Positions 24,511 to 28,740 of a stretch of DNA of 31,716 nt are shown one piece after another (the first letter of the stretch is position 1; each line of letters begins with the position of its first letter). The notes below the pieces were generated by a model, which was not told where the DNA came from, searched no databases, and saw only the letters and a program-made list of their open reading frames with translations. The position numbers and the translations under genes are program-made. This DNA comes from an uncultured Spirochaetaceae bacterium (GTDB taxonomy: Bacteria > Spirochaetota > Spirochaetia > SZUA-6 > DRHE01), in NCBI GenBank assembly GCA_964604845.1, contig CAZSBH010000047.1, positions 1 through 31,716 on the forward strand. The letters run 5' to 3'.

Positions 24511-25802
24511 AGCACCTATTCGTTCGTACCCTGATTACAGTGGTTTCCGCTTTGGTGATACTTGTGGCGGTAATGGCCGTGGTGTCGGCGGTAGGATTCA
24601 GGCGCTCCCTGGGTGAATGGACCCAAGCCAAAACACTCCAGCTGGAGGAGGTGGCGCGGGAGATCCTTCTTCGTTTCCCCGACCCGGTGACCACCCCGGT
24701 GCCTGAAGATGTACCCCTGTTTGTCTACAATGCCGAGGGGCAGCTGATCTTCTCGAATCGGGGTGAAGGCGGGCGGAGACGGAGCAGCTCGAGCGCCGCA
24801 GACCAGGGCGTTCAAGGTGATCGGGTGGCTCTCGAGGAAGGGGGAGATCTGCTCGGATACTACCATACTGGAAAGATGCAGTTTCAGAACGATGCGGCCA
24901 ATAACCGTTTTCTCAACTCCCTTCGCCTGACGATCTGGCTAGGCCTTGCCATGGCTCTGGTAATCGCTGTTCCTTTTGCCCTGCTTTTCTCCCTCAGTCT
25001 CAGCAGGCCGGCGGTTGTACTGTCCCGCGGTCTGGACCGGATCACCCACGGGGACCTTTCCATCCGGATACCCGAGCGGGGAGCCGAGGAAATCGTGTTG
25101 ATCGCTCGTTCGGCCAATCGACTGAGCGAACAGCTGCTTCGGGAGAGAGATATCCGCCGCCAGTGGGTGCAGGACATCGCCCACGATCTGCGCACACCGA
25201 TTGCGGCCATGAGGGCTCAGTTCGAAGGCATGCGGGACGGGGTCCTGGACATATCCGGCGACCGGATCGTCAAGAGTTTAAAGGAGGTCTCCCGGATCGA
25301 GACGCTGGTCGAGGACCTGGAAGAGCTGATGCGCCTGGAATCACCGGAGATGAGCGTATCCCTCGAGGAGGTCGATGTTCCCTCAATTATCGATGAGATC
25401 GCCGAGCGTTTTGCCGCGGCTCTGAGAAAAAAGCAGATCCGTTTCGAATCTCATCACGCGATCGATCGATTTCGGGCGGATCCGGTGCTGCTCCAGCGGG
25501 CAGTTACCAACTTCTTGGCCAACGCCCTCCGTCATACTCCGCTGAAAGGAACAATCGAACTGTCGGTCGAAGCCGCCGCTGAGGGAAAAACGTCGATCCT
25601 CCTGGCGAACACGGGAGATCCGATCCCGGCGGCGGATCTGGAGAAGGTCTTCGATCGCTTGTACCGGGGAGAGTACGCCCGCAGCTCCCCCGGCTCCGGT
25701 CTGGGCCTGACCATCGCCAAACGCATCGCCGAGCTTCACGGCGGAAGCCTGAGCATCCGCAATCGCGCCGAGGGCGGAGTGGTCGTGGAGATGATTCTCT
25801 AG
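24507..25802 (+). CDS. Sensor histidine kinase (2 TM, periplasmic loop of about 125 aa, HAMP, HisKA, HATPase_c)
   Basis: H-box DIAHDLRTPIAAM, plus LANTGDPIP and GSGLGLTIAKRIAELHGG. I prefer the GTG at 24507, which overlaps the regulator's stop (GTGA). The alternative ATG is at 24456. Confidence 0.85.
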   Translation: MKHLFVRTLITVVSALVILVAVMAVVSAVGFRRSLGEWTQAKTLQLEEVAREILLRFPDPVTTPVPEDVPLFVYNAEGQLIFSNRGEGGRRRSSSSAADQGVQGDRVALEEGGDLLGYYHTGKMQFQNDAANNRFLNSLRLTIWLGLAMALVIAVPFALLFSLSLSRPAVVLSRGLDRITHGDLSIRIPERGAEEIVLIARSANRLSEQLLRERDIRRQWVQDIAHDLRTPIAAMRAQFEGMRDGVLDISGDRIVKSLKEVSRIETLVEDLEELMRLESPEMSVSLEEVDVPSIIDEIAERFAAALRKKQIRFESHHAIDRFRADPVLLQRAVTNFLANALRHTPLKGTIELSVEAAAEGKTSILLANTGDPIPAADLEKVFDRLYRGEYARSSPGSGLGLTIAKRIAELHGGSLSIRNRAEGGVVVEMIL

Positions 25803-26089
25803 CAGCAGGATTTGTCGTTCCCGCCGCAGCCGCACCCCGGCTCTCCCCCCTTGATCAAGCCATTGATAACGGCCGCCGCGCAGCCCACCCCTGCGGTGAC
25901 CCGGATCGCGTTGAAAGAACAATTCATCATGCAGGCTCCGCACTCGATACATCGATCCCGATCCACGATTCTTACGGTTTTGCCGTTTTTCCCAAAGACT
26001 TCTCGGGGACAGACCTCGAGACAGCGGCCGCATCCGGTGCAGCGCTCGGGAATGAGCTCCAGCGTGACCACGTTTGTCAGATACTTCAT
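25799..26089 (-). CDS. hgcB: HgcB, 2x[4Fe-4S] ferredoxin of the mercury-methylation pair
   Basis: MKYLTNVVTLELIPERCTGCGRCLEVCP ... CIECGACMMNC ... GVGCAAAV ... ending ...KSCC. It has two ferredoxin motifs, the extra conserved Cys and the C-terminal Cys pair. Its ATG overlaps the hgcA stop (ATGA 26089-26086). The alternative start is at 26101. Confidence 0.85.
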   Translation of the reverse strand: MKYLTNVVTLELIPERCTGCGRCLEVCPREVFGKNGKTVRIVDRDRCIECGACMMNCSFNAIRVTAGVGCAAAVINGLIKGGEPGCGCGGNDKSCC

Positions 26090-27189
26090 AACATCCCCCA
26101 TTCCTGCAGCTTGTAAAGGATTAGGAGTATCAGCGATGCAGCGGCGGCTGCGACGTACAGCGGAAGTGCGATCTTGAGCTCCTTCTTGACCCCGGAAATG
26201 CTGGTGAAGGTAGTGCTCCCCGTGAACTGCAGGGCCAGATAGGAGCTGGCCGCCGGAAAGAAAACCAGACTGAAAAGGATCAGGTGGATGTCATCCAGAG
26301 CTTCTGATCCGGCCATAAAAATGAGCGGAGCCGTCGCCAGTTCACCGAGAAGGAAACCCTTGAGGGCGAAGGAGCGGAAGGGGATCCAGGGAAGTAGGAG
26401 AGGCGTCAGGAACGTGCCTGTCAGCAGCGCAGCCAGCCCGAGGAGTGCAACGGGGAGTCCGCTCTGCACCACGCTTCGAAACAGAATCCCCTCGGGCTGA
26501 AGCCCGAACACGACAAACACCGCGGCAAGGAAAATCAAAAAGCCTTTAGCTGCGGGAACGATCTCCATGGGGGTGAGCTCCAGCCGGTCTTTGAAGCTGA
26601 ATTGGGCTCTGCGCATCCTGGCCGTTGCCTTGCAGCCCGAAGCGAGGTAGGCGGGAAGGTCGCGGGCATAAACCGGTCCGTAGGAGATCGAGAAATCGGT
26701 CTCCTGCTTGACTCGATGAGCCTGCACTCCCGGTGCCCCCAACTGGGGAAGGATGATTCGCCTGTGCTCCACGATCCCGGATAGATGAGTGCTGCCGATC
26801 CGCCGGATCAGTTCTTCCGTTCCGAAAGTCCCCTTACCCGCCGCGCACCAGACATTGATGCCCCGGGTGTCCAGCACCACGATCCAGGCATCGAATCCGG
26901 CGAGCTCCCTGCGCAGCAGATCGAAACTGAGCTTGTAGTTGGCCGTAACCAGTACGGGAGACCGGCCGTTCGGAGATCCGAGGGCGTAGATCCCCGCTTC
27001 CACCGTGTAGTTCATGCGAAAGGAATTGAACAGCCGGCACTTCAGTCGGCCCAGCCTGTCTGGGCGGGACCAGCCTGCTGTGACGACCGGAACCCTTCCC
27101 GAGGCGGTATCCACGAAGCCTGTGACCCATGCCGGGGTGTTCACGGCCCGAAGATCGAACAGCTCAACGTTTTCGCAGCATTCAGACAT
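26086..27189 (-). CDS. hgcA: HgcA, corrinoid methyltransferase of the mercury-methylation pair
   Basis: 367 aa. PVLVTANYKLSFDLLRRELAGFDAWIVVLDTRGINVWCAAGKGTFGTEEL contains the diagnostic N(V/I)WCA(A/G)GK cap-helix motif (nt 26833-26856). The C-terminal half carries about 5 TM helices. Confidence 0.92.
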   Translation of the reverse strand: MSECCENVELFDLRAVNTPAWVTGFVDTASGRVPVVTAGWSRPDRLGRLKCRLFNSFRMNYTVEAGIYALGSPNGRSPVLVTANYKLSFDLLRRELAGFDAWIVVLDTRGINVWCAAGKGTFGTEELIRRIGSTHLSGIVEHRRIILPQLGAPGVQAHRVKQETDFSISYGPVYARDLPAYLASGCKATARMRRAQFSFKDRLELTPMEIVPAAKGFLIFLAAVFVVFGLQPEGILFRSVVQSGLPVALLGLAALLTGTFLTPLLLPWIPFRSFALKGFLLGELATAPLIFMAGSEALDDIHLILFSLVFFPAASSYLALQFTGSTTFTSISGVKKELKIALPLYVAAAAASLILLILYKLQEWGML

Positions 27190-28317
27190 CTACACCTCGC
27201 TCCGCAGCAGCTTTTCTTTCGCCCTTTTGCACCGGGGCAGATCGAGATCGCACTCCCGGAACAGATGACAGGTTCGTTTGCAGATCGAGACGAGCAGCAG
27301 CATCACCGGCACCTCGATCAGCACCCCGACGACCGTGGCCAGAGAGGCTCCGGAGGACAAACCGTAGAGCATCGTGGATGTGGCGATGGCCACCTCGAAG
27401 TGGTTGGAGGCGCCGATCAGCGATGCGGGGGCGGCGTCGTGGTAGGAGAGTTTCAACAATCTGGACAGGAGGAAGTAACCCAAGCTGAAGATCAGGATGG
27501 TCTGGATGAACAGCGGCACGGCGATCCAGAAGATGGTCAGCGGATTCCCTATAATGACACCCCCTTTGAGGGAGAACAGCAGCACCAGAGTTGCCAGAAG
27601 CGCGACGATGCTGACAGGGGTGAGCACGTGAAGGAATTTTTCCTGAAACCACTCGAAGCCTCTGCGTTGGATGATGATCCGGCGGGAAAAATAGCCGGCG
27701 ACCAGGGGAAGTGCCACGTAGATGGCCACGGACAGAAGGATCGTCTGCCAGGGAATGGGCATGGCGTTCACTCCGAGCAGGAACCCACCGAGGGGAGCGT
27801 ACAGAACCAGCATGGTCAGAGAGTTGATCGCCACCATCACCAGGGTCAGCCCGTCGTTGCCGCGGGCGAGGTAGCCCCACATCAGCACCATCGCGGTGCA
27901 GGGTGCGATGCCCAGAAGGATGGCCCCGGAGATATAGCTCCGCCACAGCTCCACCTCCTGCCCGGTTTTGATGATCTCCGTTCCCGGCAGAAAGCGCCGA
28001 AAGAGGACACCGAGGAACAGGCCGGCGATCAGGAACATGGTGAAGGGCTTGATCAGCCAGTTAATGCCCAGGGTCATGAGCACAGGCTTCGGTGTTTTCC
28101 CGGCCCGAAGCACGTCTTTGAAATCGATCTTGACCATGATCGGATACATCATGAAAAAGAGGCAGACCGCAATGGGTATCGAGACCTGGTATACGGAGAG
28201 GGAGTCCAGCGTTGTTGCCACACCCGGCGCGAGCCGGCCGAGAAGGATTCCCGCGGCGATGCACAGGGCGACCCAAAGGGTCAGATATCTCTCGAAGATG
28301 GTTAACCGTCTTTCCAT
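27190..28317 (-). CDS. acr3: ACR3-family arsenite efflux permease
   Basis: The ORF 27190..28437 is trimmed to [23 protein letters not shown] at 28317 (GAGGAGG upstream). The conserved [12 protein letters not shown] segment and about 10 TM helices are present. Its stop TAG abuts the hgcA ATG. Confidence 0.9.
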
Positions 28318-28345
28318 ACGGTGTGCCTCCTCATGGTGTTTTTCT

Positions 28346-28723
28346 CTATCGATAGGTGATGACGCACTTTCCGTTTTCCCGAAGCGCCAGCCGCTCGGCG
28401 AGCCTTCGGGAATCCGCCGCATACAGCGGATCCGCATCGGGAAGCCTGTCGATGCTCTCGAACAGCTTGTCGTTGAACGGTGTTTGGATGAGTCTGTACA
28501 TCATGAGCTTGCCCTCCCGTCTCTCCTCCACCAGCTCGGCTTTCCTGAGTACCGTAAGGCTCTTCGACACGGTGTACTGGGGTTTTTTGAGCACATCCAC
28601 CAATTCGCATACGCACAGCTCCCCCGGGGCCAGCCGCAGCAGCCTGAGAATGCGGAGCCGGGTGCCTTCCCCGACGGCTTTGTATGCTTCGATTGTCTTG
28701 TTCACGGTTGCACTATATTGCAT
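28346..28723 (-). CDS. arsR: ArsR/SmtB-family metalloregulator
   Basis: 125 aa. [12 protein letters not shown] ... [11 protein letters not shown] (CVC metal(loid) site in the wHTH). The true start may be the GTG at 28705 (see the promoter feature). Confidence 0.85.
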
Positions 28724-28740
28724 ATGTGCATATCAGTCAA
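28703..28740 (-). promoter_or_regulatory. Sigma70-like promoter TTGACT-N17-TATAGT with an imperfect palindrome TGCACATATGCA in the spacer (candidate ArsR operator)
   Basis: The minus strand reads TTGACTgatatgcacatatgcaaTATAGTgcaaccGTG. The -35 is at 28740-28735 and the -10 at 28717-28712. The palindrome at 28730-28719 matches at 10 of 12 positions. The annotated arsR ATG (28723-28721) sits inside the spacer. Confidence 0.35.

Follow-up and report, generated by a model that had tools for sequence, protein, structure and literature searches.

No route to methylmercury in the environment is known other than that of the corrinoid protein HgcA and its ferredoxin partner HgcB, whose native function and regulation are both open questions. 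A link to arsenic has been described in Pseudodesulfovibrio mercurii ND132, in which the regulator ArsR2 controls hgcAB and arsenic induces the genes (Gionfriddo 2022, bioRxiv 10.1101/2022.10.17.512643). According to the account given in PMC7438021, hgcAB of Desulfovibrio and Pseudodesulfovibrio is also preceded by an arsR gene and shares a transcript with it (Goni-Urriza 2020). Here we describe a locus of an uncultured Spirochaetaceae bacterium in which the gene of an arsenite pump, acr3, stands between arsR and hgcAB, in the order arsR-acr3-hgcA-hgcB. It lies in a stretch of 31,716 nucleotides (nt) (assembly GCA_964604845.1, contig CAZSBH010000047.1), which was analysed as a whole and is referred to below as the window, or WIN; all window coordinates refer to it.

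hgcAB regions flanked by acr3, arsC, arsM or arsR have been published before, as the available text of several reports attests (PMC7438021; bioRxiv 10.1101/2022.10.17.512643; PMC10349881; PMC11984097). In the text that accompanies Fig. 6 of McDaniel 2020 (PMC7438021), acr3 and arsC are said to have "immediately flanked" the hgcAB regions of diverse putative methylators. Zhang 2023 (PMC10349881) and Peterson 2025 (PMC11984097, Fig. 4c) report the same association, and in the Lake Mendota metatranscriptomes of the latter study, the presence of arsR correlates with lower hgcA transcription. The window locus has the same gene set as these published loci from metagenome-assembled genomes (MAGs), and, like them, suggests that arsenic resistance and mercury methylation are linked. 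The preliminary description of the window, which presented the in-line pump as going beyond the links already described, therefore claimed too much, since flanking ars genes were already on record and other gene orders are common in the survey presented below. What is new is the position of the pump between the sensor and hgcA (this exact order may already appear in published figures), the sequence features that suggest a selected translational coupling, the canonical Cys-Val-Cys sensor with a conserved promoter and an operator-like element, and the extent of the arrangement across Spirochaetota.

The locus resembles arsR2-hgcA-hgcB of ND132, in which hgcAB is immediately preceded, on one strand, by an ArsR/SmtB-family gene that is co-transcribed with hgcA. 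The ND132 locus, however, contains no other ars gene and its ArsR2 has an atypical site of four cysteines (C47, C49, C86 and C88), whereas the window has a classical helix-3 ELCVCEL site, and Acr3 is encoded between the regulator and hgcA. The window locus also resembles canonical arsR-acr3-arsC operons, such as that of locus L170, in that arsR is upstream and Acr3 is 81% identical; its promoter and operator layout is similar to that of another ordinary locus, L160. The gene that follows acr3 is arsC in these operons, but hgcAB in the window. Last, the arrangement recalls that of ArsM in ars operons, a methyl-transfer function under ArsR control beside an arsenite pump. Unlike ArsM, which is an As(III) methyltransferase that depends on S-adenosylmethionine (SAM), HgcA is a membrane-anchored corrinoid protein, and the two are unrelated.

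A putative arsenite-responsive operon

We propose, with a probability of about 0.7, that arsR-acr3-hgcA-hgcB is an arsenite-responsive, ArsR-repressed operon of four genes in an uncultured Spirochaetaceae-like bacterium. The four genes are read head to tail on the minus strand, between 25799 and 28740 (Table 1). The arsR stop codon TAG (28348-28346) is separated from the acr3 ATG by 28 nt, the acr3 stop codon TAG (27192-27190) abuts the hgcA ATG (27189-27187) with a spacer of 0 nt, and hgcA and hgcB overlap by 4 nt, ATGA (26089-26086). The GAGG of the Shine-Dalgarno (SD)-like element of hgcA ends 5 nt upstream of its ATG. With gaps of 28, 0 and -4 nt, the four genes are indeed packed on one strand, and their junctions have the features of translational coupling that the preliminary description had seen, all of whose coordinates and junction details agree with the sequence. 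The geometry is that of a single operon: one strand, short or overlapping junctions, and an order that is kept in at least seven lineages.

Table 1. Positions of the operon genes, of the associated sequence elements and of five large open reading frames (ORFs) in the window
Feature	Position (strand)	Description
arsR	28346..28723 (-)	longest ORF, ATG 28723, 125 aa; likelier start GTG 28705, 119 aa
acr3	27190..28317 (-)	375 aa, ACR3-family arsenite efflux permease
hgcA	26086..27189 (-)	367 aa, corrinoid protein of the Hg methylation pair
hgcB	25799..26089 (-)	96 aa, 2x[4Fe-4S] ferredoxin partner
-35 hexamer	28735..28740 (-)	TTGACT; consensus scan and conservation
-10 hexamer	28712..28717 (-)	TATAGT; consensus scan and conservation
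Operator-like element	28720..28733 (-)	ATATGCACATATGC, in promoter spacer; ATATG-ca-CATAT inverted repeat, TGCA-N4-TGCA core
acr3 SD	28326..28332 (-)	GAGGAGG, within the 28-nt arsR-acr3 spacer, 8 nt before acr3 ATG
hgcA SD-like element	27193..27198 (-)	GAGGTG, the final two acr3 codons (Glu-Val)
Possible operon terminator	25435..25451 (-)	hairpin and T-run, some 350 nt beyond hgcB; inside the convergent histidine-kinase gene, in antisense
Five large ORFs	11740-18936	836 aa (+); 392, 459, 392 and 411 aa in a row (-)

In the mechanism that we envisage, a single sigma-70-type promoter, TTGACT-17-TATAGT, with an ArsR operator-like palindrome in its spacer, would drive the whole unit, and would most likely start a leaderless message at GTG 28705. 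The binding of As(III), and possibly of Sb(III), to the Cys-Val-Cys pair of ArsR would relieve repression and give the entire message. The acr3 gene would be translated from its own strong SD, ribosomes that finish at the acr3 TAG would re-initiate at the abutting hgcA ATG, aided by the GAGG in the last acr3 codons, and the translation of hgcB would be coupled to that of hgcA by the ATGA overlap. The expression of hgcAB would thereby be gated by the arsenic signal, and its amount tied to that of the pump.

Promoter, candidate operator and start of arsR

In a consensus scan of positions 25000-29500, TTGACT-17-TATAGT (28740-28712), upstream of arsR, is the sole sigma-70-like site. The same promoter is the only such match in the operon region of two relatives, L173 and L083. 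It belongs to a block that is conserved in seven lineages, TTGAC(T/A)-N-ATATGCACATATGC-NN-TAT(A/T)(G/T)T-GCA-NNN-(G/A)TG, where TTGAC(T/A) is invariant and TAT(A/T)(G/T)T is found at a fixed spacing of 17 nt; the flank further upstream cannot be aligned. In agreement with the earlier remark that no promoter is visible between arsR and acr3, the scan shows no promoter-like site before acr3; nor does it show a sigma-70-like site before hgcA in the window, L173 or L083.

The palindrome ATATGCACATATGC is almost invariant in WIN, L001, L083, L084, L173 and L174, and a related version is present in L172. In four ordinary ars loci (L092, L103, L119 and L160), arsR is likewise preceded by a similar ATATGCA/TGCATAT palindrome, and the ordinary arsR-acr3 locus L160 has the identical layout of -35 hexamer, palindrome and -10 hexamer. 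These comparisons make ATATGCACATATGC a candidate ArsR operator.

The ATG at 28723, which opens the longest arsR reading frame, lies between the -35 and -10 hexamers, and therefore cannot be on a transcript that starts from this promoter. Since the conserved -10 hexamer (28717-28712) is downstream of this ATG, the start codon of arsR is likely GTG 28705. In 7/7 lineages, a start codon (GTG, or ATG in L083 and L084) is found exactly 6 nt past the -10 hexamer, where transcription should begin, which suggests that the arsR message is leaderless. The arsR gene thus probably codes for a protein of 119 amino acids that is translated from a leaderless message; the gene call for arsR in CP070696.1, the chromosome of L083, already has the 119-residue start.

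The regulator itself matches the ArsR family (NF033788, 75.3 bits for a cut-off of 55) and its winged helix-turn-helix domain (PF01022, 48.6 bits for a cut-off of 22). The motif ELCVCEL, residues 35-41 of the 125-residue form, is conserved in every member of the clade, and the protein is a canonical ArsR of the CVC type, in line with the earlier description of a sensor of the ELCVCEL type. In ArsR of R773, Cys32 and Cys34 suffice for As(III) sensing, and the shorter form of the window protein places its two cysteines at 31 and 33, next to these positions. The third cysteine of R773 ArsR (Cys37) is absent from the window protein, where a conserved C-terminal cysteine (GKCVITYR) could stand in for it.

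Conservation of the arrangement in Spirochaetota

The order arsR-acr3-hgcA-hgcB is found in at least seven lineages of Spirochaetota: the window, L001 (a Spirochaetaceae MAG), L083 (the closed MAG chromosome CP070696.1), L084/85 (MAG and JGI contigs), L172 (whose Acr3 is 86% identical to that of the window), L173 (a MAG contig with a different upstream context) and L174-176 (Acr3 cluster P0042). Every context that was fetched within the Acr3 clade of the window has this order. Cluster P0042 has entries in 41 blocks of the assembly collection, which indicates that it is present on many contigs.

The junction between acr3 and hgcA takes four forms. It is of 0 nt in five lineages (the window, L001, L083, L173 and L174-176), in which GAGG(T/C)G-TAG-ATG is identical. 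In L084/85, the spacer is of 10 nt, with its own SD, GAGGA, plus TTG. The two genes overlap by 4 nt, ATGA, in L172, where arsR is upstream, and by 1 nt, TGATG, in L086 (the closed MAG chromosome CP070841.1, Acr3 82% identical), where arsR is divergent. The junction has therefore been re-solved in four ways, and it is always tight. The gap between arsR and acr3 is of 28 nt in the window, 13 in L083, 28 in L173, 22 in L174, -4 in L084 and 71 in L172.

The SD-like element can also be followed in the protein sequence of the pump: the C-terminus of Acr3 is Glu-[Val/Ala] in 58 of the 64 clusters of the hgcA-linked clade, whereas the next 56 clusters, which are more distant, show no pattern at this place. 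This is the signature of an SD that selection maintains inside the coding tail.

It may also be argued that the adjacency has no regulatory meaning, that hgcAB is expressed mainly from its own unrecognised promoter in the 3' end of acr3, and that the spacing merely results from genome compaction. The scan looks for simple matches to the sigma-70 consensus, so that promoters of other types would be missed. Moreover, hgcA diverges faster than acr3 (74% versus 93% identity to L083), a sign that selection constrains the two differently. We nevertheless regard this explanation as quite unlikely: tight junctions are kept in four forms over a deep divergence (HgcA identity down to 54-57%), the SD is conserved within codons of acr3, and a sigma-70-like site before hgcA is absent from the three lineages scanned. 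It is also a common observation in operon prediction from intergenic distance that genes on the same strand and 0 nt apart are nearly always co-transcribed.

The unit might also have arisen as a chimera of the assembly, or from one recent rearrangement within a single metagenome bin; this comes to mind because the material is uncultured and because, outside the window, the identical HgcA is found on no more than two contigs, both short. These two contigs (from JGI and Logan) are independent, though, and both have the identical acr3-hgcA-hgcB junction; the same order recurs in the closed MAG chromosomes CP070696.1 and CP070841.1 and in many other assemblies, and the GC content is uniform across the unit. 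The adjacency is thus kept in related genomes, contrary to what a one-off event would predict; the comparative data refute this explanation, whose probability is close to nil.

In the window, acr3 and hgcA share one reading frame, and in all lineages with a 0-nt junction a single TAG separates the two genes in frame (27187-27192 in the window); the other types of junctions are out of frame. We may speculate that a hypothetical read-through of this TAG would yield an Acr3-HgcA fusion, whose topology would be compatible with such an arrangement.

In L086, the divergent arsR is followed by a gene of the URO-D family (PF01208, to which the methylcobamide methyltransferases MtaA and MtbA belong; positions 3241-4645 of the locus, CP070841.1). 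The presence of a gene of a corrinoid methyl-transfer type near hgcAB could have a bearing on the identity of the methyl donor.

Several points weigh against the proposed arsenite-responsive operon. Co-transcription, the transcription start, induction by As(III), translational coupling and the leaderless start are predictions made from the sequence. A scan based only on the sigma-70 consensus could overlook a weak promoter, or one of another type, inside acr3. An inverted-repeat finder with a seed of 6 reports nothing in the promoter, because the arms of ATATGCACATATGC are only 5 nt long in the window. The RNA of the acr3/hgcA junction is no different in structure from shuffled sequences (z = 0.73); being not unusually structured, it gives no evidence for an occlusion of the ribosome-binding site that would enforce strict coupling. 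As the four-cysteine site of ArsR2 differs from that of the window protein, the behaviour observed in ND132 is not simply transferable. Last, leaderless GTG starts are less efficient than ATG starts.

HgcA, HgcB and the pump

HgcA matches NF040863 with 405.7 bits (cut-off 275) over positions 1-322 of the 325 of the model, so that both the corrinoid-binding and the transmembrane domains are covered, and the cap-helix motif with the cysteine ligand is present (GINVWCAAGKG, which contains NVWCAAGK). HgcB matches NF040864 with 116.7 bits (cut-off 99); it has the two CX2CX2CX3C motifs, CTGCGRCLEVCP and CIECGACMMNC, and ends with KSCC, a C-terminal pair of cysteines. The ratio of nonsynonymous to synonymous substitution rates (dN/dS), calculated against four relatives, is 0.11-0.28 for arsR, 0.05-0.12 for acr3, 0.17-0.19 for hgcA and 0.06-0.15 for hgcB, which indicates purifying selection on all four genes. 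As judged from these sequence features, HgcA and HgcB are an intact, selected pair for corrinoid- and ferredoxin-dependent methyl transfer. The HgcA proteins of WIN, L083 and L084 are mutual best hits; those of L086 and L172 are about as close to HgcA of Nitrospirota or of other Spirochaetota as to these, so that the HgcA proteins of the acr3-linked loci may not form a single clade.

The N-terminus of HgcA contains, within its first 25 residues and ahead of the part that the NCBIfam model matches, a Cys-Cys pair (MSECCEN..., window 27145-27189), which echoes the C-terminal pair of HgcB. We considered this pair as a trait linked to acr3 and rejected the idea: the pair is present in 41 of 86 HgcA sequences, and missing in L001 and L174.

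Acr3 matches TIGR00832 with 385.9 bits (cut-off 282.8) over residues 5-346 of 375. Its sequence contains GIAPCTAMV and SNHFEVAIA, which provide the cysteine of the P-C-x-A-M motif and the glutamate of the N-x-F-E-(L/V)-A-I-A motif. For the Acr3 proteins of C. glutamicum and A. metalliredigens, both residues have been reported as essential. The Acr3 clade of the window comprises at least 64 clusters (clustering at 90% identity), 88-100% identical to the window protein and all but one of 375 residues; the few clusters whose source is named are labelled Spirochaetia or Spirochaetaceae.

The relatives of this pump at 81-83% identity are found in canonical ars contexts. At locus L170 of a Spirochaetales MAG, the genes are arsR-acr3-arsC-arsR-arsP-thioredoxin, and similar gene sets accompany an Acr3 of 81-83% identity in another contig and in Theionarchaea; in L171, acr3 is followed by the gene of a class I (SAM-methyltransferase-like) methyltransferase. 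The pump of the window is therefore an ordinary Acr3, and the sequence comparison supports an ordinary role in arsenite export. hgcAB fills the slot after acr3 that arsC or a methyltransferase gene holds in the sister operons. In 80 metagenome loci whose Acr3 is 61-79% identical to that of the window, no hgcA was found within 4 kb.

The cytosolic tail of Acr3, which is outside the TIGR00832 model, has four cysteines in the pattern CK(R/K)TCxLFxECxLDLPxC (window 27190-27290), and it may have a metalloid-binding or regulatory role. It is not an adaptation specific to hgcA, an idea that we discarded since 116 of the 120 clusters of the subclade have the tail, archaeal members and members from canonical ars operons included.

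ars-associated hgcAB in other phyla

A search for acr3 and arsR in other hgcA neighbourhoods had been suggested in the preliminary description. In the 80 best species-representative hgcA loci, acr3 is present within 5 kb in 14. By a rough inference, chance would place acr3 in less than one of 80 windows of 11 kb (assuming 1-3 copies per 3-5 Mb). An arsR gene of the ELC[V/A]C type is directly upstream of hgcA in 16/80 other hgcA loci.

L001 is the only one of the 80 loci in which acr3 precedes hgcA, and the 0-nt form is confined in this survey to Spirochaetota. The order arsR-hgcA-hgcB-acr3, on one strand and with short gaps, is observed in seven loci (Bacillota, Bacteroidota and Fibrobacterota), and in three of these (L060, L063 and L075) arsC follows acr3. 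One Nitrospirota locus has the order hgcAB-arsC-acr3, two loci have arsR-hgcAB followed by genes for Cys-rich and DsbD-like membrane proteins and then acr3, and in one Syntrophorhabdus locus an arsR-acr3 pair is divergent from hgcAB. The Acr3 proteins of these loci are only 31-50% identical to that of the window, which points to independent recruitments.

The similarity of the arsR genes was also ranked against their context, with the aim of deciding whether acr3 was inserted into arsR-hgcAB or hgcAB appended to arsR-acr3. The best outgroup matches (33-45% identity) are arsR genes that precede acr3 or are divergent from hgcA; those that precede hgcA score only slightly lower. Evolution has embedded hgcAB in ars operons by several independent routes, of which the window operon is one, and this repeated embedding argues for a real selective link.

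In L051 (Fibrobacterota, 6752-8096) and L074 (Phycisphaerales, 6366-7721), two genes lie between hgcB and acr3. The product of one has the motif CCGP(D/G)C(G/N)C near its N-terminus, and that of the other is, as judged by eye from the sequence, a DsbD-like membrane protein. This pair may be another recurrent accessory module of hgcAB-ars loci.

Does HgcAB contribute to metalloid detoxification?

The embedding of hgcAB in ars operons could also mean that HgcAB is a working part of metalloid detoxification, which, as a methylase or a methyl-transfer relay, would act by means of its corrinoid on As(III), Sb(III) or thiol complexes of either, together with Acr3, the methylation of mercury being a side reaction; the preliminary description also offered this reading. 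This is consistent with the position of hgcAB after acr3, where sister operons have arsC or a SAM-methyltransferase-like gene, with its repeated occurrence in ars operons of varied orders across phyla (14/80, with Acr3 31-50% identical), and with the sensor being a canonical ArsR of the As(III) type. In a more speculative variant, the methylase would be tethered to the pump by occasional read-through of the TAG in the 0-nt lineages.

We consider such a function unlikely. The substrate of Acr3 is As(III) and, for some members, Sb(III), while the proteins that deal with methylarsenite are ArsP and ArsK. We know of no Acr3 that carries methylarsenite, and there is no arsP in the window operon. 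The literature found does not report any methylation of arsenic by HgcAB. In the only genetic test found in the literature, as described in the available text on ND132 (Gionfriddo 2022), the deletion of hgcAB causes no significant overall loss of arsenic resistance and no differential sensitivity to As(III), while a reduced tolerance to As(V) is noted; the arsenic products described there are thioarsenicals, and methylarsenicals are not mentioned.

Genomic surroundings

Upstream of the operon and on the same strand, the window codes for an MFS_2 transporter and a GNAT acetyltransferase; 29 nt separate the stop codon of the latter from the arsR ORF. On the downstream side, the genes of a regulator of the OmpR type and a histidine kinase, which form a two-component pair, are convergent with hgcB. 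Beyond them lie genes for a DUF2202 protein, a NapH-like Fer4_5 protein and a pirin, among others. The stop codon of hgcB overlaps that of the histidine kinase (gene 23806-25802) on CTAG (25799-25802), and it is likewise in L083 and L173. The operon is accompanied by a syntenic block of genes for the kinase, response regulator, DUF2202 and Fer4_5 proteins in WIN, L083, L084 and L174, even where the upstream context differs; in L173 the synteny largely holds, DUF2202 being missing. Any read-through past hgcB would be antisense to the kinase gene.

The site of the possible terminator, with its hairpin and T-run, is identical in L173, which might only reflect the conservation of the kinase coding sequence. 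A weak terminator-like site also exists inside acr3 (28027-28008). In this consensus-only scan, terminator-like sites are no more numerous than in shuffled sequence, with counts that equal the expectation or fall short of it.

No arsC, arsM or arsP gene is found in the 31.7-kb window, an Rfam scan of the entire window detects no riboswitch or other RNA family, and the composition analysis gives no island signature. The five large ORFs of the region 11740-18936 have no Pfam match at E<1e-4.

Significance

The operon strengthens an existing hypothesis and offers a good system to test it; it does not open a new one. It is a clean natural construct for the study of the link to arsenic, with a textbook ArsR of the As(III) type, a single recognised promoter, and hgcA probably tied in translation to an arsenite pump; environmental spirochaetes, in which it is widespread, have conserved it. 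Were HgcAB part of metalloid detoxification, its embedding in ars operons would reveal its native role. If the operon is arsenite-responsive, as we propose, exposure to arsenite should raise the methylmercury output of these organisms, which would be relevant to sites that are contaminated with both arsenic and mercury, such as rice paddies and mine drainage.

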